Source: a virus (taxonomy: Duplodnaviria; Caudoviricetes). Taken from it: a DNA stretch of 64,000 nt. Below the pieces are notes generated by a model. It saw only the letters and a program-made list of their open reading frames with translations, was not told where the DNA came from and ran no database searches. Each line of letters begins with the position of its first letter. Positions within the stretch are counted from its first letter, which is position 1. The stretch lies in IMG/VR virus record IMGVR_UViG_3300046170_000302. One strand, 5' to 3'. A program made the translations under genes and the position numbers. Below are positions 9,306 through 63,000 of this stretch, piece by piece.

Positions 9306-12084
9306 ATGGCAAGAGCAGTAAAAATCTTTGGTGACGCATCACAAGGATCCCTTTTCTTTGAAGGAGTTTCAATTCCTCCTGCACCTTTGGGTGGTATTGT
9401 CGTAGCAATTGAAAATCCTAATCGTCCAGGAAAGATTCGAGTTACTAGAACGGATCAGTTCCAGAAAGATGGTGTTACTCCAAGGGTTCTTTTCAAAAGA
9501 ATGCTTCCTAGTAGAGTTAGAAATAAACAGAACCAGTCCCTTATTTCTGACCTTGGGTTTAGTCTGGCACAGGTTATAAGTTACATCAATGACGAAGCAA
9601 ACAGAAAAGCAAACGAGATTGACTTTCAAAAGAATGGTTCTGTAGTTGGTAGTGGTAACACAATAAACTTTACTGGAGCAGGAGTTTCTGCTGTCACTGT
9701 TAGTGGTGATGTTGCAACTGTAACTATTACTGGTGGAGGGGGATCTGGAAATCCTGTAGCCAGTGGTACTATAGTTGGAGCAGGATCCACAACACTCAGA
9801 CTTACTCTGGATGATGCAACTAATGTTGATGTTGATGTGACTTCTATGAGAAGTACAACAGCAATTGGTTCATCAACTGCTTATTTCTTCCTGAATAATG
9901 GTGCTCAACTTGCTAACAACCAACATGATAAGGATGGTGGTGTAGTTTTCTATGGAACCAAAGTAAGAAGAGGGGAAGAACTTGTTTTTGCTTTACCATC
10001 TGATAACCTTCACATTGGTATATGGGATGGTGGTAATGGAGTAACAGGTGTTACTAATGTAAATAACAAATCCAACTGGTCTACCAAGTGGGCGTATGAC
10101 GTTAGTAACACTAGATGGTCAGATCATAATGTTACTAGAGGACAAACAGGAACAGATCTATCATCTGATGTTGAGACAGATAGTAGCACTTATAGTATCA
10201 AATTTGATTATGATACACAGAAACTACAACTTTGGGAAGTTGATACTGCATATAATTGGAAGTTATCAAATGCAAATGTTGGAGTTGGATCAACTGACAC
10301 TTATATTTTCTTCTCATCTGAAGAGGGTTCGCAGGCATCAACACCAGGAAGTCTCCCATCAGTATCACAAATAAGAGCATCTGAGTGGACACTTCAATCT
10401 TTTGTCAATACTCAAGCTGGTCCTACTATTCATACTGGCGTACAAGATGATGACATCTGGAAATCTACCAGATCAATGAGACCTGGTATGAAGATGAAGA
10501 CAACACTGAGTGGTGATATTAAACTCCATCACTGGAGTGTAGGATATGGTGGTACAACTGGTCTAGGCAATGGACCAAGTAATCCATATGGTGATGCAAC
10601 TGGTTCCTGGAGATCTTCAAATTCTCAGGAGATTAGATCAGAGCAAAACTCTACTATTAACAATAACTATACTGCTGCTGTTGATACAAGCACAAATCTT
10701 ACCTTAGATTTAGAAGGAAGAAATATTTCTTGGAGATATAACTCAGACAATAGTTGGGATCTTTTTGATGAAGATACTGACGAGGTAATCCTCACTGGTG
10801 ATACCAATCTTGATGGTGGTGATATGTATCCATATCTCTTTGGTGCAGCAACCATCAATACCTATACAACAGAAGTTCCACAATGGGAATGGGAATGGAA
10901 TGCTTCTCAGTGGTTTACTGAGTATCGTGATTATAGTGGTGGTGGAACCACCTTCGTGGGTAAGGTTCCAATTGTGAAACCACTGAAGACATATACCAGC
11001 AGTGGATCTCTGTCTGGTGGTTACTACTATCTTAGTAATGCAAGGTATAGATATACTTGGGGTGAGAAGATGAGACCTGGACAAGAGTTCTCTTGGACTC
11101 AACTTTCAGATAACTCTAATGGTGCTACCAAGAACAATATGGTTATTGGTGTTTTGAATAGTGACTCTGATGAGTTCACACATGGTGTCAGATTCCACCA
11201 ATTTGGTTATCCAAAAGAACAGTCAGATCAAGATACTGGATTTACACTCTCTGCTGGTATTGGTACTGATACTGCATGTGCTGGTACAAGTATGAGATTG
11301 AAGTATGAGTATGGAACTAATAAACTTGTATGTGAAAGAGTTACTGCTGGTGTAAGAACTAAAATTGGTGAATCCTCATCTGCACTAGATGGTAATCCAA
11401 TCTTCATTAGTCTTGGTGGAGAATCAACTAGAGTTCCTACCACACAGGGAGTTTCTGTATATGGTTGGGAATGTGTTCATAAAGGAGTTGGACACTACAA
11501 TCCATGGGAAAACTGGAGAATTGGTGGATTCCCTGAGAACCAAAGTAGTCTTGCTGTTGGTATTCATAGCACTGGTGAGTCCTCTTGCCTTCAAGGCAGA
11601 CCAGGTATGGAGACATAAGGATGGTCTAGCACCAGGATATAAGATGCACTGGTTGCTGCCTACCACTCAAATCAATGGTCAGATTGGTCAGTGGTCATCT
11701 TCTAATGCTTCTTCTGGTCTCACTAATGTAGAGAATCTTGATACCTATTGGGATTGGAGTTGGCAGTCAAACACTAGTGAAGAGATTGATGCACTGAAAG
11801 GATTTACTTTTAATACCGGCAACTCCAACTACTCTTCTACTAAGTGGACAGACCCAAGTCCTGGTAACACTAAGTTCTCTATTAGATACCATTCTAATAA
11901 TAGTATTGATATCTTTGATGAATCAAATAGTGCTATCATTGCAACTAAGGATGCTGCTGGCGACGGTAACCCCATCTATATCAGTTGGGTAGCAGGTGGT
12001 AATACCAATAGTCAAGCACAAATGCAAGATGACTTCTTCGGTGGTGGTGATGTGGGTATTGCACTCACTACAACATCCGTCTAA
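9306..12084 (+). CDS. Large putative fibre / receptor-binding structural protein (frameshift near 11580)
   Basis: ORFs 9306-11618 and 11389-12084 are compositionally continuous; Trp/Gly/Ser/Thr-rich repeated domains (VRRGEELVF, MRPGMKMK, MRPGQEFSW, LAPGYKMHW). Confidence 0.65.
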
Positions 12085-12104: not shown

Positions 12105-12308
12105 ATGAGTAGAACTAGGCAAACCGCCGATATTGTTTCAAAAATAAACATTCCGCAACTAACAGAAGCTCAACGTGATGCAGGTTCTTTTGTTGCCGGT
12201 GCAATCATATACAATACGACATCAACAAAGTTAGAGTTTTATAATGGTTCTTCTTGGCAGTCACTACCTGGAATGTCTCTTGGTCTTACTGTAGCACTTG
12301 ATGGATAA
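12105..12308 (+). CDS. Small fibre-associated hypothetical protein
   Basis: GAIIYNTTSTKLEFYNGSSW motif, typical of phage fibre junctions; ATAAATA just upstream. Confidence 0.6.
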   Translation: MSRTRQTADIVSKINIPQLTEAQRDAGSFVAGAIIYNTTSTKLEFYNGSSWQSLPGMSLGLTVALDG

Positions 12309-12311
12309 GAT

Positions 12312-12319
12312 TATAAATA
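12312..12319 (+). promoter_or_regulatory. T4-type late promoter TATAAATA
   Basis: Exact TATAAATA 24 nt before the ATG at 12344. Related ATAAATA cores also lie at 2268, 6405, 16172, 19102, 50910, 54933 and 56209. Confidence 0.75.
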
Positions 12320-12343: not shown

Positions 12344-14230
12344 ATGATTAACGAAGAGGGACTTAGAGATTGGTTTGGCAAATCCAAATCAAAAGATGGT
12401 AAACCCGGTTGGGTTCAATCTGATGGTTCCCCTTGTGCTAATGAACCTGGAGAAAAGGGAACACCTAAGTGTTACTCTTCGGCAAAGAAAGCCAGTATGT
12501 CGAAGAAAGAACTTCGATCGGCTGACACAAGAAAGTCAAGACAAGATCCCGGACAACAACAAAAGTCTGGAGCAGCCAAACCAACCTACGTTTCTACTGA
12601 TAAACCTAAAAAGAAAATGAAAGAAGAAACTTTTAACGAAGCAGAAGACAAGAAGACTAAAGGTAGTGGTACTAAAGACGCCTGTTATACTAAGGTAAAG
12701 TCTCGTTATTCTGTATGGCCTTCAGCTTATGCCTCCGGTGCATTGGTGAAGTGTCGTAAGGTTGGTGCAGCTAACTGGGGGCAACTCTACTAAGAAAGAA
12801 GAGTTTGAAGGTTTCTATGACCTTCCTGCTTTCACTGAAACTCAGATTGCAGCTATGAAGTATGCTGGTATTGAGGTAGAAGTTATTGATGAGGCATGTT
12901 GGAAGGGATATGAGAAGAAAGGTATGAAGACTATGTTTGGTAAGAAATATCCAAACTGTGTCAAGAAAGAAGAAGTAGAAACAGTTGATGAAGCCGCTGG
13001 AGGAATTATTGGTGGTGGAATGTTGGCCCTTAAAGCTTTAAAAACTGCCAAAGTAGCAAAGGGTCTTAGTACCGCCGCTAAACTTGGTTCTGCGGCATCT
13101 GCTTTAGCACCTGCAGTTAAAGTTGCAGGAGCAACAGGAGCAGCAAGTGGAGCAGGAATGGCAGCAGCTGGTGCGGTTGGTGCAGCAGGTGGATATGGTT
13201 TAGCTAAAGCTACTGAGAAGAAGAAACAACAACAAGAAGAAGTAGAAACAGTTGATGAAGCATGTTGGGATACTCACGAACAAAGGGGTATGAAAAAGAA
13301 GGGTGGCAAGATGGTACCCAACTGTGTTCCCAAAGGTTCTATGAAGAAAGAAGAAGTCACTGGTGGTATCCTTGTTCAGGATGCAGGAGATTTCAAACCC
13401 CGTGAGATTGAATCAGTTGATATCATCAAGGCTGACCCTATCAAAGGTGGACAACTTCAAGAAGTTGTAAGAACTAAGGTCCAAACCGGTAACATGTATC
13501 AAGTTATCTTTGGTTGGAGAGGTAAGATGATGATGGTGAAGTTGTTCTTCCCTGATGTATCTGTTCCAAACAGACAGAAGGTTGCTGATGCTTTGGATAA
13601 GATGTATCCTGGTTCTCAGTTGAGATCTTATTCACACTCAGTTGTTGATTATGATGATCCATATGTCAATGTAGGTGAGGAAACTATTCTTGAGAAAAAA
13701 GAAGAAGAGAAGTATTGTCGTCTCTGTGAGAAGAGAGAAACTCGTGGAACATGTGGTTATGGACCCAAAATGTTTGACAAGTTTAGTGTAGATAATGTTA
13801 GTGATACTGTAAAATCATCCGCAGCAGCTGAGTCTGATATTACAGAGGACATCAATAAAAAAGTTGAAGATAGAATGCAGTCTGATGAAAACAGAAAAAG
13901 ATCTCTGATTAGAAGTAAGATGAGAGCTTCTCGTTCGAAACAGAAAAGTGATCTACAATCTGAAGAGAATATCGAAGAAGATATGACTGGTATGTCCCAG
14001 AAGTCTGGTGACAAAAGAAGTACTGATAGTGGAGCTGGTATGACAGCTAAGGGTGTTGCTAAGTATAACAGGAGAACAGGTGGTAACCTGAAAAACTGCT
14101 GTCACAACTCCTCCTTCTAAACTGAAAACCTGGTTCAAAAGCCGCAGGACGTAGAAAGAGTTTCTGTGCAAGATCTAAGAGTTGGAAAGGTGAAAGAGGA
14201 TTAGCTGCACGTCGTCGTTGGAACTGTTAG
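12344..14230 (+). CDS. Modular Lys/Glu-rich late protein, putative internal-head polyprotein (frameshifts near 12780 and 14095)
   Basis: Short modules separated by [VILF]-x-E linkers; two ACW..PNCV modules; ends RRKSFCARSKSWKGERGLAARRRWNC. Confidence 0.65.
12967..13261 (+). repeat. Perfect 28-bp direct repeat AAGAAGAAGTAGAAACAGTTGATGAAGC (12967-12994 and 13234-13261)
   Basis: Read directly; both copies encode EEVETVDEA and flank an Ala/Gly/Lys-rich module. Confidence 0.9.
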
Positions 14231-14236
14231 TAATTT

Positions 14237-15905
14237 ATGAGTAATGATGTTTATCTTGGTAATCCCCTTTTAAAAAAGGCGAATACACCAATTGAGTTCA
14301 CACAAGAACAGATTGAGGAGTATATTAAGTGTAGGGAAGACCCTGTATACTTTGCTCAAAACTATGTGAAGATTGTGACCTTGGATCATGGTCTTCAACC
14401 GTTTAAAACTTATGACTTCCAAGAGAAGTTAATCAATAATTTTCACAATAACAGATTTAATATCTGTAAGATGCCTCGACAGACTGGTAAATCTACCACA
14501 TGTGTGTCGTATCTACTTCACTATGCTATTTTTAATAGTAGTGTAAATATTGGTATTCTGGCTAACAAAGCCACAACTGCTAGGGAACTATTAGCGAGGT
14601 TAGCTACTGCATATGAGAACTTACCTAAGTGGATGCAACAAGGCATTCTGGTCTGGAATAAAGGAAACATCGAACTGGAAAACGGATCAAAAATACTCGC
14701 TGCATCAACTTCCGCTTCAGCTGTCCGAGGAATGTCTTTTAACATTCTTTTTCTGGACGAGTTCGCCTTTGTTCCTAATCACGTTGCTGACGCATTCTTT
14801 GCCTCTGTATATCCTACTATCACTTCAGGTAAATCAACGAAAGTAATTATTGTATCCACCCCTCACGGGATGAACCACTTTTACAGATTGTGGATGGATG
14901 CAGAGAAACAGAGAAACGAATATATTCCAACCGATGTCCACTGGTCAGAAGTTCCTGGTAGAGATGTTGTATGGAAAGAACAGACTATTGCCAACACATC
15001 AGAACAACAATTTAAGATTGAGTTTGAGTGTGAGTTCCTTGGATCTGTTGACACACTGATTGCACCGAGTAAACTGAAGTCTCTGGTATTTGAAAAGTCC
15101 ATTCAAAATAATGCTGGTTTAGATGTATATGTTAAACCCGAGGACAAACATGATTACGCGATTACTGTTGACGTTGCACGTGGGGTTGGTAATGACTACA
15201 GTGCTTTTGTTGTTGTTGACATAACTACTTTCCCTCATAAAGTTGTAGCTAAGTATAGAGATAACACTATTAAACCAATGTTGTTTCCAAGTGTCATCTA
15301 TGAGGTGGCTAGGAGTTACAACCAAGCTTTTATTCTATGTGAAGTGAATGATGTTGGTGATCAGGTTGCTTCTATTCTCCAATATGATTTGGAATATCAG
15401 AACCTACTGATGTGTTCTATGAGAGGTAGAGCAGGTCAGATTGTAGGACAAGGTTTCTCTGGACAAAAGACACAATTGGGTGTTAAGATGTCTAAGACTG
15501 TAAAGAAGGTCGGATCACTGAACCTCAAGACAATGATTGAGGAAGATAAGTTACTCTTCTGTGACTATGATATAATCTCAGAACTTACAACCTTCATCTC
15601 TAAATCGAATTCTTTTGAAGCAGAAGAAGGATGTAATGATGACTTGGCTATGTGTCTTGTCATCTATGCTTGGTTAGTTGCTCAAGGACTACTTTAAAGA
15701 ACTTACAGACCAGGACATTCGCAAAAGACTGTATGACGAACAAAAAAATCAAATCGAACAGGACATGGCTCCATTTGGTTTTATCGATGATGGGTTGGAT
15801 TCTTCTAGCTTTGTAGATAGTGAAGGTGACAGATGGTCTGTTGCTAAAAACGATGAGTATGGAACAACTGCTGGTGGTATGGATTATATGTGGAATTCTT
15901 GGTAA
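14237..15905 (+). CDS. g17: Terminase large subunit gp17 (frameshift near 15685)
   Basis: YLGNPLLKKAN start, Walker A PRQTGKST, Walker B ILFLDEFAF, nuclease motif NDDLAM. Confidence 0.96.
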
Positions 15906-21322: not shown

Positions 21323-21973
21323 ATGAAACTAATTAGAGAAGAAATTGAACAGGTAGAAGTTATCGTTGAAGAACGCAACGGTAAGAAAAACATGTTCATC
21401 GAAGGAATCTTCCTACAGGGAGACCTCAAGAATAGAAATGGTCGTATGTATCCAATGGAAACTCTGAGAAGAGAAGTCCAAAGATACAGTGAGAACCACA
21501 TTCATGCAGGTAGAGCTCTTGGAGAACTGGGACACCCAGATGGCCCAACAGTTAATCTGGATCGCGTCAGTCACAAAATTGTTTCTCTCAAAGAGAGCGG
21601 AAACAACTTTATCGGTAAGGCCAAAATCTTATCGACTCCGATGGGTAAGATTGCAGAGTCTCTCATTAGCGAAGGAGTTAAGTTGGGCGTTTCTTCTAGA
21701 GGAATCGGATCACTCAAACAAACAAGAGAAGGTGTAAATGTTGTTGGTGATGACTTTATGTTATCAACAGCAGCTGACATCGTTTCTGATCCTTCTGCAC
21801 CTGATGCTTTCGTTGAAGGCATTATGGAAGGTAAGGATTGGGTTTGGGATGGTGGCATCTTGAGAGAATCTCAAGTAGCTAAGACCTACAAGTATATCAA
21901 TACACTGGTCGATCAAAAACAACTTGATGAGAAAAAGTTGGATGTCTTCAACAGTTTCTTAAATAGTCTCTGA
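21323..21973 (+). CDS. g21: Prohead protease gp21
   Basis: NRNGRMYP, ALGELGHP, LGVSSRGIGS, DPSAPDA motifs. Confidence 0.97.
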   Translation: MKLIREEIEQVEVIVEERNGKKNMFIEGIFLQGDLKNRNGRMYPMETLRREVQRYSENHIHAGRALGELGHPDGPTVNLDRVSHKIVSLKESGNNFIGKAKILSTPMGKIAESLISEGVKLGVSSRGIGSLKQTREGVNVVGDDFMLSTAADIVSDPSAPDAFVEGIMEGKDWVWDGGILRESQVAKTYKYINTLVDQKQLDEKKLDVFNSFLNSL

Positions 21974-21994: not shown

Positions 21995-22002
21995 TATAAA
22001 TA
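21995..22002 (+). promoter_or_regulatory. T4-type late promoter TATAAATA upstream of g22/g23
   Basis: Exact consensus in an AT-rich intergenic region. Confidence 0.75.
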
Positions 22003-22044: not shown

Positions 22045-23101
22045 ATGTCTCGTGGAGATCTACAAGAAATGGAGCAATCCAAAACTGCTGTGAATGCGAA
22101 CGCCAAAGGCCGGTGATCCCATTCAGAAACTGGCCCCTGGAGCTGTAGCTGGACAACCAGCTGTAGAAGACCTCGGTGGACCTACCCCTGAAAACTATAA
22201 ATCTGATGACGATTCAGCAAAGCTCAAAGAGCCTAAGATCGCCACCGTTAAAGATGTAGTTAATAAAGGAGCCAAGGCCGCTGATCCTATGAAGGGAATG
22301 AAAGAAGAGGAAGAAGTTTCCTCTGAAGAAGTTCTGGAAGAGGAGCCCGTCGCAACAGAAGCTACTGTCGAAGAAGAGATTGACATCGAAGAAGATGTTA
22401 ACGCTCTCCTCGGTGGTGAAGATTTGTCTGAAGAGTTTAGAGAGAAGGCCAAGATGGTCTTCGAATCAGCTCTCAACTCTAAAGTTTCTGAAATCCATGA
22501 GGCACTAGAAGCCCAGTATGAAATCAAACTGGAAGAAGCTAGAGAGGGCCTGAAAGAAGCCCTTACCGATAGAGTTGATTCGTATCTTGAGTACGTCGCT
22601 GAAGAGTGGATGACCGAGAACGAATTGGCCATCGAACATGGTCTCAAGACCGAAATGACCGAGTCCTTCCTTTCTGGAATGAAGGGACTCTTTGAAGAAC
22701 ATTATGTAACAATCCCTGAAGACAAATATGATGTACTTGAGAGTATGGTAGAAAAACTTGATGATATGGAAACCAAGCTCAATGAGCAAATTGACAAGAA
22801 CATTGGTCTGAATCAGCGTTTGTCTGAATCAGTATCTGACAATATTCTTGATCAAGTTTCTGAAGGACTTGCAGTCACTCAGAAAGAAAAGCTCGCCTCA
22901 CTTGCTGAAAGTGTTGAGTTTGAAAGTGAAGAAGAATATCGTGAAAAGCTGGAGACCCTGAAGGAGTCGTACTTCTCCAAGGCCCCAACTGCAAAATCGG
23001 AAGCCCCACAGACACTTTCTGAGGGTGTAGATACGACTGATGCTCCTGTAGCATCTAGTATGGAAGCCTATCTCAGAACTCTGAACGCTTTCAAAAAGTG
23101 A
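22045..23101 (+). CDS. g22: Prohead core scaffold gp22 (frameshift near 22106)
   Basis: ATG at 22045; DLGGPTPENY, VDSYLEYVAEEWMTENELAIEHG; directly before g23. Confidence 0.93.
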
Positions 23102-23148: not shown

Positions 23149-24588
23149 ATGTTCCAATCCGAGCATCTGCAGGAAAAGTGGAGTCCCCTCCTCGATTATG
23201 AGGGTCTCGATCCTATTAAGGATTCACATCGTAGAAGTGTGACCGCTGTCCTGCTTGAGAACCAAGAAAAGTTCCTCAAAGAAGAGCAAGCATTTAGTCA
23301 GGGTATCAACCTGATGGAATCACCCACCAACTCAGCTAACGCTGCTGGTGCTTCAGGTGGTTTCTCTGGATCCGCAACCGCAGCTGGTCCTGTTGCTGGT
23401 TTCGATCCCGTTCTGATCTCTTTGATCAGACGCGCAATGCCTAACCTGGTCGCTTATGACCTGGCTGGCGTTCAACCTATGAATGGACCTACTGGACTCA
23501 TCTTCGCGATGAGATCCCGTTATGAGAATCAGGCTGGAGCTGAGGCTCTATTCGACGAAGCTAACACTGTATTCTCTGGACAAAACAAGAACGGAGCCCT
23601 TAACGCTGGTTGGGAAGACCAGGCTGTTGGTCTGGGAACCGGAACACAGAGAGGAGACAATCCTGGTGTTCTTAACCCCGTTGGTGCTGCTTCTACTAAC
23701 GTAGCTGCCTACACCACTGGTCCTGGTATGGCTACAGGCGACGCTGAGAACCTTGATGGTACCGGCAACGAAGCCTTCAACCAAATGGCTTTCTCGATCG
23801 AGAAAGTTACTGTTACCGCTAAGTCTAGAGCACTGAAGGCTGAGTACAGTCTGGAACTGGCTCAAGACCTTAAGGCTATCCACGGTCTTAACGCTGAAGC
23901 CGAACTGGCTAACATCCTTTCTACTGAAATCTTGGCCGAGATTAACCGTGAGGTTATCCGTACCATCTATATGACAGCAGAACAGGGTGCAGCTCAGAAC
24001 GTTGCTACTCAGGGTGTATTTGACCTGGACATCGACTCCAATGGTCGTTGGTCTGTTGAGAAGTTCAAAGGACTTCTTTTCCAAATCGAGCGTGACGCTA
24101 ACGCGATCGCACAAAGAACTCGTAGAGGGAAAGGCAACATGGTTCTGTGTTCCGCAGACGTTGCTTCCGCACTTACGATGGCTGGTATCCTGGATTACAC
24201 TCCAGCACTCAACGCTAACTTGAACGTTGATGACACCGGTAACACATTCGCTGGTACGATTAACGGTAAGTTCCGTGTATACATCGACCCCTATTCGGCC
24301 AACCTGACTTCGGGTAATGGTCCTAATGGTAACCAGTATTACGTTGTTGGATATAAGGGTTCTTCCCCTTATGACGCTGGACTGTTCTATTGTCCTTACG
24401 TTCCCCTTCAAATGGTTCGTGCTGTTGGAGAGAACTCCTTCCAGCCTAAAATTGGCTTCAAGACCCGTTATGGTCTGGTTGCTAACCCATTCGCCGAAGG
24501 TTCAGCAGCTGATGGTCAGGGTCTTGGTAGACTCCGTGTTAACTCCAACCGTTACTACAGACGTGTTGCTGTTAAGAACCTCATGTGA
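23149..24588 (+). CDS. g23: Major capsid protein gp23
   Basis: GVQPMNGPTGLIFAMR, SRALKAEYSLELAQDLKAIHGL, FYCPYVPL, FKTRYG. Confidence 0.98.
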   Translation: MFQSEHLQEKWSPLLDYEGLDPIKDSHRRSVTAVLLENQEKFLKEEQAFSQGINLMESPTNSANAAGASGGFSGSATAAGPVAGFDPVLISLIRRAMPNLVAYDLAGVQPMNGPTGLIFAMRSRYENQAGAEALFDEANTVFSGQNKNGALNAGWEDQAVGLGTGTQRGDNPGVLNPVGAASTNVAAYTTGPGMATGDAENLDGTGNEAFNQMAFSIEKVTVTAKSRALKAEYSLELAQDLKAIHGLNAEAELANILSTEILAEINREVIRTIYMTAEQGAAQNVATQGVFDLDIDSNGRWSVEKFKGLLFQIERDANAIAQRTRRGKGNMVLCSADVASALTMAGILDYTPALNANLNVDDTGNTFAGTINGKFRVYIDPYSANLTSGNGPNGNQYYVVGYKGSSPYDAGLFYCPYVPLQMVRAVGENSFQPKIGFKTRYGLVANPFAEGSAADGQGLGRLRVNSNRYYRRVAVKNLM

Positions 24589-60702: not shown

Positions 60703-63000
60703 GTAACGGTACAAAGGTTCAGAAGAGAGATGGTCGTGTTGAATCACTTGACCTGGATAAGATGCATCTTATGGTTGAAGAGGCGTGTGATGGCCTATCA
60801 AATGTGTCTGCTAGTCAGGTAGAGATGACATCTGGTATTCAGTTCTATGATGGCATTACTACTGCTGAGATCCAAGAGATTCTTATTAAGAGTGCCAGTG
60901 ACCTGATTGACTTGGATCACCCCAACTATCAGTTTGTAGCTGCAAGACTCCTTCTGTTCTCTCTTAGGAAGCAACTGTATGGTGGTAGGAGGGAGATGCC
61001 TTCCTTGATTGATCACATCACCAAACTGGCATACGATGATCACTATGATAGAGATATCTTTACAAAGTATTCACAAGAAGAGATTGAGAAGGTAGAAACT
61101 TTTATTGATCACGATCGTGATTTTCTATTCACATATGCTGGTTTGAGGCAGGTTGTGGATAAATACCTAGTACAAGATAGGAGTATTGGAAAGGTACACG
61201 AAACTCCTCAGTTCATGTATATGATGATTGCATTGACAATCTTCCGTGAGTATCCAAAAGAAACAAGACTTTCCTACGTTAGAAGATACTACGATGCCAT
61301 CTCAAAACACAGACTCAACATCCCAACGCCAATCATGGCGGGTGTCAGAACTCCCCTACGCCAGTTTGCGTCTTGTGTTCTGGTTGATGTTGATGACACC
61401 CTGGATAGCATTTTTAGTTCTGATATGGCCATTGGCCGTTATGTCGCACAAAGGGCTGGCATCGGTATCAACGCTGGCAGGATCCGTGGGATCAACAGTA
61501 AAATCAGGGGCGGAGAAGTACAGCACACTGGCGTTGTTCCTTTCCTTAAGAAGTTTGAATCAACTGTACGATGCTGTACACAAAATGGGATTCGTGGTGG
61601 CTCAGCAACAGTCCACTTCCCCATCTGGCACCAAGAAATCCAAGACATCATCGTCTTAAAGAACAACAAAGGCACAGAAGACAACAGGGTACGGAAACTT
61701 GATTACTCAATCCAAATTTCAAAGATTTTCTACGAACGTTTCATTGCGAATGGAGAGATTAGCTTGTTCTCACCGCACGACGTACCGGGTCTGTATGATG
61801 CCTTTGGTACTGACGGGTTCGATGATTTATATGTTAGTTTTGAACGAGATGAGTCTGTTCCAAGAAAGAGTATTAAAGCACAAGAACTAATCCTCGATAT
61901 TCTCAAAGAAAGAGCAGAGACCGGTCGTCTGTATCTGATGAATATTGACCATTGTAACTCTCACTCTTCTTTCAAAGATAAGATTGAGATGAGTAATCTG
62001 TGTCAAGAGATTACTCTCCCCGACATATCCTTTGTCACACATCGATGACCAGGTTGGTGAGATTGCACTGTGTATTCTCTCAGCAGTCAACGTTGGTAAG
62101 ATTAAGTCCGATGAGGAACTAGAAGACCTCTGTGACCTAGCTGTGAGGGGTCTAGACGAGTTGATTGACTATCAAGACTATCCAATCATCGCAGCTGAAC
62201 TTGCAACTAAGGCAAGAAGGTCTCTGGGTATTGGTTACATTGGATTGGCACACTACCTAGCAAAGTTGGGTTACTCCTATGATTCACAAGAGGCATGGGA
62301 TGCTGTTCATGGACTCTCTGAGTCCTTCCAGTATTACCTTCTGAAGTCTTCTAATCAGTTGGCTAAGGAGAAAGGTCACTGTGAATACTTTGGTCGCACC
62401 AAATACTCCAGTGGAACACTACCTATCGATACATATAAGAAAGATGTAGATGAACTAGTATCAACGGAGTTGCAACATGATTGGGATATGCTTAGGAATG
62501 ATATCCTCGAATACGGTCTCAGGAACTCAACACTGTCCGCACAAATGCCATCGGAAAGCAGTTCCGTTGTGTCAAACGCAACTAATGGAATCGAACCTCC
62601 TCGTGGATACTTGTCCATTAAGAAGTCCAAGAAAGGGCCTCTTAAGCAAATTGTTCCCCAGTATGCCTCATTGAAGAATAACTATACTCTTCTGTGGGAT
62701 ATGAAAGATAATGGTGGATACATTAGAATAGTAGCTGTGATGCAAAAGTTCTTCGACCAGGCAATTTCTGGTAACTGGAGTTATAATCCAGAGAACTATC
62801 CTGATAATGAGGTTCCTGTTTCCCAGATGGCAAAGGATTTTCTCACAACTTATAAATATGGTTGGAAGACATCCTACTATCAGAACACTCACGACTTAAA
62901 GTCTGATGAAGTAGATGAAGAGCCGCAGTCGAAGTTAGATGAATTGTTATTAGAACTATCACAAGCCGAGGAGGGAGAGTGTGAATCCTGTGCAGTTTAA
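60699..63000 (+). CDS. nrdA: Class Ia ribonucleotide reductase alpha subunit (frameshift near 62020)
   Basis: ATP cone VQKRDG, PTPIMAG, FASC, SNLCQEI, LCILS, MPSESSS, C-terminal CESC. Confidence 0.97.

Follow-up and report, generated by a model that had tools for sequence, protein, structure and literature searches.

What does a phage make from a gene whose product is a string of small modules joined by short linkers that end in glutamate, and what is the significance of a perfect 28-bp direct repeat that brackets one of these modules? The gene that raises these questions occupies positions 12344-14230 on the + strand of a 64,000-nucleotide stretch of viral DNA (IMG/VR record IMGVR_UViG_3300046170_000302), hereafter called the window, from a T4-like cyanomyovirus whose nearest isolate, S-SCSM1, has a DNA identity of only ~76%. 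T4-like cyanophages are among the most abundant marine viruses, and the family to which the gene product belongs comprises at least 7,995 distinct proteins (a lower bound, from a search at E ≤ 1e-10) that are still annotated as hypothetical or simply structural. The reading that we favor, with a probability of about 0.58, is that the gene encodes a late, virion-associated precursor of the T4-GC119/DUF6321 family, organized like beads on a string, whose cassettes are exchanged at their leaders and which is cut in the prohead.

Exchange of cassettes within the gene

Once three private 1-nt homopolymer extensions, discussed below, are ignored, the gene encodes 627 amino acids that can be divided into modules, all on the + strand. 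Basic module A (12344-12640), with the motif LRDWFGKSKSKDGK..., ends in FNE and is followed by module B (12641-12781), with the motif KDACY..VWPSAYASGALVKCRK..NWG, and by the acidic module FT (12783-12893), which ends in the leader EVEVIDE. Module C1 (12894-12992), with the motif CWKGY..PNCV followed by the leader KKEEVETVDE, precedes an Ala/Gly/Lys-rich cassette, AG (12993-13259), which consists of an 81-residue core and the EEVETVDE leader of the next module. That next module, C2 (13260-13358; CWDTH..PNCV), is a paralogue of C1, as the sequence-only reading of this locus had proposed: the two cores are identical at 14/25 positions. The remainder comprises linker module T (13359-13463), which ends in LQE with a Glu that is invariant in 85/85 relatives, module D (13464-13694; WRGK..KLFFP), the Cys-rich module E (13695-13847; YCRLCEK..TCGYG), which ends in ITE, the basic module F (13848-13979), which ends in IEE, and module G (13980-14230), the C-terminal DUF6321 domain, which has a net charge of +17 and is spread over three frames in the window. 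In an AlphaFold2 model C1 and C2 are predicted to form β-hairpins, D a confident β-β-α-β unit (core pLDDT 83-92), and F a long helix, and a Foldseek comparison of the full model with the PDB returned no match at E ≤ 0.001.

The 28-bp repeat is exact in both copies, at 12967-12994 and 13234-13261 on the + strand, with no extension on either side; each copy encodes (K)EEVETVDEA, and the Ala/Gly/Lys-rich module lies between them, as first described. The repeat is the family's usual acidic leader, standing before two successive cassettes, AG and C2. Gain and loss of modules at such linkers, which had been suggested from the repeat, is strongly supported by the comparison of alleles. The gene for protein P0027 on contig L016, which is ~97% identical to that of the window with 59 substitutions, lacks exactly 12967-13233, which is 267 nt comprising the AG cassette and one repeat copy, with both breakpoints in the repeat. 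In metagenome runs X2 and X9, loose contig ends connect the end of C1 straight to position 13234, and elsewhere in these runs contigs that retain the cassette extend across 12952-13301; therefore, alleles with and without the cassette coexist in the same samples. The metagenome contig graph branches at 12964-12974, the 3′ end of C1, into at least six continuations.

The same variability is seen across the family, whose module content is hypervariable. We compared 62 close environmental relatives, with identity to the window of at least 90% in modules A and B and at least 85% in module D, and found 37 architectures among them. Module A is present in 62/62, and the order A-B-FT...T-D...G is constant, with slots for variable cassettes at the N terminus and in the intervals A-B, C1-T, and D-G. 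In 12 isolates, which belong to different genera, the orthologs are 401 to 926 amino acids long and use the same small modules in varying number and order, with module D located N-terminally in S-8S53 and S-PRM1. At the DNA level the purine-rich word AAGAAAGAAGAAGT occurs at two junctions of the window gene, that of C1 and C2|T, and the near-identical AAAGAAGAAGAG occurs at the D|E junction. As a separate observation, contig depth over module C1 (12903-12969) is 10-20 times that of its neighbors in three metagenomes, and C1 therefore appears to be common, and near-identical in DNA, to many co-occurring phage genotypes. Even if the protein is never cleaved, intragenic exchange of cassettes at short coding repeats is documented here, with both alleles in the same sample, and provides a clear example of how a phage structural gene diversifies.

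Junction motifs, the prohead protease and the fate of the product

The gene was assigned to T4-GC119 by tblastn and module matches to labelled genes in S-SM1 (SSM1_115), S-SSM5 (SSSM5_108), and S-SM2 (SSM2_109). The intact 627-residue protein, P0006, which is encoded by both JGI metagenome contigs L013 and L014, matches DUF6321 (PF19846) with 41.3 bits against a Pfam gathering cut-off of 28.5; in the window the frame breaks divide this match between two frames, and neither part (19.1 and 16.8 bits) reaches the cut-off. Searches against Pfam and PHROGs returned only families of unknown function and no homology to the T4 internal protein (IP) genes, and a full-text literature search for DUF6321 returned no paper. 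Published proteomics supports, at the level of the family, the expectation that the protein is found in virions. T4-GC119 is listed as a structural protein by Sullivan et al. 2010 and scored 'Y' in S-SM1 virions with 13 peptide counts by mass spectrometry, and the Syn9 genome lacks T4-GC119 (PMC3037559, Table S8). For S-SCSM1, a study in which mass spectrometry revealed 45 virion proteins gives the ortholog, ORF29, the annotation 'virion protein' (PMC9602691). Because the best BLAST matches of ORF29 are hypothetical proteins only, and because that study identified virion proteins by mass spectrometry, we infer that the label rests on mass spectrometry.

All eight of the glutamate junctions listed from the sequence alone are present, and a ninth hydrophobic-x-Glu motif, INE, stands before module A at the extreme N terminus. 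The signal of this motif lies in its placement and conservation, not in its number. In an alignment of 85 relatives that covers four junctions, the P1 Glu is found in 81/84, 83/84, 85/85, and 84/84 sequences and P3 is hydrophobic (F, V, I, M, or L) in 84/84, 82/84, 85/85, and 74/74, with two His at one junction, while P2 is free at three of the four junctions and nearly fixed at FT|C1 (Asp in 81/84). We also counted the motif upstream of modules A, B, C, D, G, and AG in the 12 isolates and five metagenome proteins: hydrophobic-x-Glu stands at a short, near-fixed distance upstream in 56 of 65 module occurrences, whichever module precedes. In the AlphaFold2 model the junction motifs are located in, or at the edge of, low-confidence linkers.

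The phage encodes a protease to which these junctions may be matched. A gp21-type prohead core serine protease (21323-21973, + strand) was identified as Peptidase_S77 with E = 2.3e-34, and T4 gp21 recognizes the motif L/I-X-E and cuts after the Glu (PMC9026906). The major capsid protein gp23 (23149-24588, + strand) contains NLME|S, with Glu57 encoded at 23317-23319, which aligns with T4 FLTE|A, the site that precedes the mature N terminus, and the window's gp22 scaffold contains 27 hydrophobic-x-Glu motifs. The pattern at the junctions is consistent with the expected trace of a site for a trans-acting protease. Because the junction Glu is near-invariant, P3 is hydrophobic, a gp21 homologue is encoded, and the gp23 site aligns with that of T4, cleavage of the precursor by the phage's own gp21-type prohead protease appears likely.

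In this protein, a fixed backbone of A, B, FT, T, D, and G offers several slots for interchangeable cassettes of ~30-90 residues, and every cassette is accompanied by a short acidic leader of the form (K/Q)(K/Q)EE-V/T-E-x-V/I-D-E. In the DNA these leaders are purine-rich short repeats at which, in the mechanism that we propose, the phage recombination machinery inserts, deletes, and reorders cassettes, while in the protein their hydrophobic-x-Glu ends fit the L/I-x-E specificity of the phage's T4-type prohead protease. The precursor would be incorporated in the prohead core and cut there into mostly basic mini-proteins, the set of which would vary from strain to strain.

Several observations weigh against this proposal. 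P3 is Ile or Leu at five of the nine junctions and Val or Phe, rather than Leu or Ile, at the other four, and no hydrophobic-x-Glu site occurs at B|FT or C2|T. The number of motifs in the single protein, 13, compares with 9.0 ± 2.6 in shuffled sequences (P = 0.09). A Fisher test of junction Glu against other Glu gave P = 3e-7 and was set aside as circular, because the module starts had been picked at those same Glu sites. Conservation of the motif could in part reflect its co-inheritance with the cassette leaders. The N terminus has no T4-like capsid targeting sequence, with only M-I-N-E before module A, and ortholog N termini differ widely. In S-PM2 the T4-GC119 gene is present and its product was undetected in the virion ('-'; PMC3037559, Table S8). 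Our literature search found no terminomic data on the protein, no data on its size in virions, and no direct evidence of its cleavage, of a location in the head as opposed to the tail or neck, or of ejection, and the supplement of the S-SCSM1 study (PMC9602691) contains no peptide lists able to show non-tryptic termini.

Some of these points are shared with the alternative that survives best, namely that the product is a multi-domain structural protein that is never cleaved and persists intact in the virion, perhaps as a flexible decoration, as part of the neck, or in association with the fibres. In that case the acidic linkers would be flexible spacers and recombination sites only, with a motif that is structural or simply travels with the cassettes. 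Fibre-like genes on one side of the gene and the terminase gene on the other suit such a protein, as do the folded beads and disordered linkers of the AlphaFold2 model, which do not need cleavage, the single-sequence motif count that is not above chance, the missing capsid targeting sequence, and leaders that are inherited along with their cassettes. However, a mere spacer does not readily account for a near-invariant P1 and a hydrophobic-restricted P3 where P2 and the adjacent linker columns vary, for the same motif before unrelated modules and in distant genera, or for its match to both the specificity of the encoded protease and the phage's own gp23 site. We regard an uncleaved structural protein as possible and, on this evidence, rather doubtful.

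The favored reading of a precursor cut in the prohead can be extended, tentatively, to function. The gene might hold a recombining library of mini-effectors, from which the prohead protease would free strain-specific small basic and Gly-rich peptides that would be ejected with the DNA and would act on host defenses, DNA, or membranes. Should cleavage of the precursor at the conserved Glu sites occur, the phages would pack a variable cocktail of mini-proteins, which would differ between otherwise near-identical strains in one water sample and would represent both a new level of specificity between phage and host and a naturally occurring system for in-frame domain shuffling. If the mini-effector idea is also correct, cassette exchange at protease-site leaders would be a dedicated mechanism of diversification against Synechococcus and Prochlorococcus.

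The Ala/Gly-rich cassette

AG is a rare conserved cassette. Its 81-residue core, residues 217-297 of P0006, contains 26 Ala, 16 Gly, 10 Lys, and 1 Glu, and 12 variants, with identity down to 54%, share 21 invariant columns. In every case (V/I)(D/N)E|AAGG marks its upstream boundary and a tail rich in Lys and Gln comes after it, which in most variants reads KKKQQQ and then EEV. In the relatives AG is found after C1, C2, another module, or D, and also in proteins without DUF6321. With the same leader it occurs in the metagenome proteins P0019, P0134, P0021, and P0022, which are modular and have no A, B, or DUF6321 modules; its presence in such proteins indicates that the cassette pool is common to at least three phage gene families. 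A profile search of 1.84 billion representatives matched five 50%-identity clusters only, all of them phage-like modular proteins, and for this reason offers no clue to the origin of AG. Within the AG cassette, run X2 and protein P0008 show a 9-nt in-frame deletion polymorphism (window positions 13126-13134), which slightly alters the length of the Ala/Gly tract.

The sequence-only reading described AG as a cationic amphipathic, membrane-active peptide, which would be released in the head and act on the host membrane. The cationic part of this description holds, with 10 Lys against 1 Glu giving the core a net positive charge, and the Gly-rich ends AAGGII.G and AAGG(Y/F)GL are conserved. Amphipathicity is not borne out: the helical hydrophobic moment of AG peaks at 0.35, below the 0.42-0.48 of the top windows elsewhere in the same protein, and AlphaFold2 predicts no helix or other secondary structure in AG (pLDDT ~33). 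Membrane activity is likewise unsupported. The mean Kyte-Doolittle hydropathy of AG is ~1.0, and its 18-residue means do not exceed 1.14, which is too low for a membrane span. Three AG variants had no Pfam hit, membrane and glycine-zipper families included, with chance-level rows only at E ≤ 10. A feature search of the ESM Atlas gave scores of 0.77-0.81 to unnamed viral clusters only and is uninformative.

What keeps the membrane idea alive is the presence of hydrophobic cassettes in the same slot of other alleles, although these are not homologues of AG. In P0071, residues ~262-345 form a hydrophobic Gly-rich cassette in the C1-T slot, with two glycine-zipper-like segments and a basic loop between them, and P0039 and P0040 have a different hydrophobic cassette in this slot. 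The matches of the P0071 cassette to Pfam are weak and sub-threshold (C19orf12-like at 28.3 bits against a cut-off of 30, Gly-zipper_YMGG, and Bacteriocin_IIc), and an hhalign comparison of the AG profile with this glycine-zipper-like cassette detected no similarity. Taken with the low moment, the modest hydropathy, the absence of a predicted helix, and the lack of Pfam matches, this leaves a membrane-active AG peptide improbable.

Frame breaks, neighboring genes and comparison with known systems

Positions 12344-14230 had been taken to encode a single protein, but in the window no single open frame spans them. The reading passes from frame 2 (12344-12793) to frame 0 (to 14120), then to frame 1 (~14095-14127), and back to frame 2 (stop at 14228-14230), with three 1-nt breaks on the + strand: a G5 run at 12777-12781, where relatives have G4; an A5 run at 14091-14095, within the DUF6321 domain, where relatives have A4; and an A4 run at 14125-14128, where relatives have A3 and after which the starting frame is restored. 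Across the cassette gene, contigs L013 and L014 differ from the window by three 1-nt differences and a handful of substitutions, and by nothing else, and P0006 equals the read-through of the window at every residue except the X placeholders at the three breaks. Isolate orthologs are continuous across all three break points. The extra base at the first break is absent wherever contigs of four independent runs (three DNA libraries and one RNA library) cover it, and at the second and third breaks the deletion accounts for all depth in most runs and for about half in X9 (14091) and X15 (14125). Contigs from the RNA library (run X15) span the gene, although they cannot prove its transcription.

Two neighboring genes are broken as well. 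The gene for the terminase large subunit (TerL; 14237-15905) is frame-shifted near 15680 (15675-15690), where the S-SCSM1 TerL matches window frame 2 over residues 2-480 and frame 3 over residues 483-547; because the gene is essential, this break is probably a sequence error. The fibre-like gene at 9306-12084 is split into open reading frames (ORFs) of 770 and 231 amino acids with a frame change at ~11576-11581, and its homologue in L013 is unbroken. Relative to L013, the N-terminal two thirds of the fibre-like protein are ~79% identical and the last 167 residues are 98% identical, which indicates that this gene is a mosaic. Because contigs lack the extra bases and because the terminase and fibre-like genes are also broken, the three breaks in the cassette gene are most likely sequencing errors of this record, with the biological gene intact. 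That they are genuine, making the window copy a pseudogene or a case of programmed frameshifting, is very unlikely: three +1 insertions do total +3 and return reading to the starting frame, but all are homopolymer extensions that are absent from L013, L014, L016, and nearly all covering contigs of the four runs, and the essential terminase gene next to them is broken too.

The origin of the 28-bp repeat is informed by contig L015, where the arrangement is C2-AG-T and AG has no flanking repeat, not even of 6 nt; therefore, the repeat is not an intrinsic end of the cassette or of a mobile element. Insertion of a small mobile element in the gene, with the repeat as its target-site duplication or as its terminal repeat, can be argued from the 239-nt unique segment between perfect direct repeats and from the natural 'empty site' allele. 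Such an origin is scarcely credible, given that the insert is in frame, that the repeat codes for the family's normal leader peptide, that AG occurs elsewhere without it, that many other cassettes are exchanged at the same type of leader, and that the empty allele has one copy only, with 2/28 bases unlike those of the repeat, so that the repeat is not a simple duplication of the empty-site sequence.

Downstream of the cassette gene the window encodes gp17, gp18, gp20, the gp21 protease, gp22, and gp23. Expression from a late promoter had been claimed for the cassette gene, and a T4-type late-promoter-like box, TATAAATA, does occupy 12312-12319 on the + strand, 24 nt upstream of the ATG that starts the gene at 12344; its role as a promoter is suggested by analogy with the T4 consensus. 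The window contains five copies of TATAAATA, against 3.3 expected by chance, all on the + strand. The other four may be additional late promoters: those at 21995, 24668, and 58101 are shortly upstream of ORF starts at 22094, 24695, and 58144, and the one at 62851 is ~130 nt before a GTG at 62981. Directly upstream of the cassette gene is a 67-residue ORF (12105-12308), which had no match in our own Pfam scan at E ≤ 0.001; identical copies on the sibling contigs have a precomputed Pfam match to PTL_trimer (PF26696).

In function, the cassette protein would come closest to the internal and core proteins of T4 and to the head proteins that giant phages process, and would also resemble the idea of polyvalent proteins. 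By sequence or defining features it belongs to none of these groups, because it lacks a capsid targeting sequence, contains neither effector nor peptidase domains, and has no homology to them. The T4 gp21 substrates IPI, IPII, IPIII, Alt, gp22, gp67, and gp68 are likewise products of late genes in a T4-type phage, and the T4 internal and core proteins likewise give small, mostly basic products, which are predicted here. The T4 loci are highly variable between related phages, as is the cassette locus, and the internal proteins IPI-III carry an N-terminal capsid targeting sequence of ~10 residues that ends in a gp21 site. T4 gp22 is likewise reduced to many pieces, as the cassette protein would be after the cleavage proposed here. 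In contrast, the T4 internal and core proteins have no sequence similarity to the cassette protein, which has no such targeting sequence and from which many putative products would arise from one precursor whose cassettes are shuffled within the gene. The T4 gp21 substrates and the cassette protein both have hydrophobic-x-Glu before each product or putative product, to be compared with the L/I-X-E motif (PMC9026906).

The giant phages phiKZ, 201phi2-1, and SPN3US, which have gp21-like proteases, likewise use a very short Glu motif, and in phiKZ many virion proteins are cut after Glu at S/A-X-E (PMC9026906). Their substrates, however, are large proteins with propeptides, encoded by separate genes and with another P3 preference, and do not form a string of exchangeable mini-modules. 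Polyvalent proteins contain many unrelated domains per polypeptide in varying architectures, and are predicted to be packaged and delivered with the DNA, their domains being freed by proteolysis (Iyer et al. 2017; PMC5512222), in a paper that does not mention cyanophages. They are large and enzymatic, with zincin-like peptidase, ADP-ribosyltransferase, primase, and other domains and usually an embedded peptidase, whereas the modules here are 30-100 residues long, with Pfam matches only to DUF6321, DUF192, and DUF5872, and the protease would work in trans. A Pfam search of P0006 and nine relatives found no polyvalent-type effector or peptidase domain.

For the shuffling itself, the closest precedent is found in the PeSLs of T4-type genomes (Arbiol et al. 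2010; PMC2839356), which are promoter-terminator cassettes located between genes and which shuffle entire genes. There, as here, short repeats act as recombination sites, and modules are inserted, deleted, or replaced between near-identical T4-type phages. The repeats in the cassette gene differ in being coding linkers inside one gene, at which protein modules are shuffled in frame, and the process seen in the window is thus the intragenic, in-frame counterpart of repeat-mediated module shuffling in T4-type genomes.

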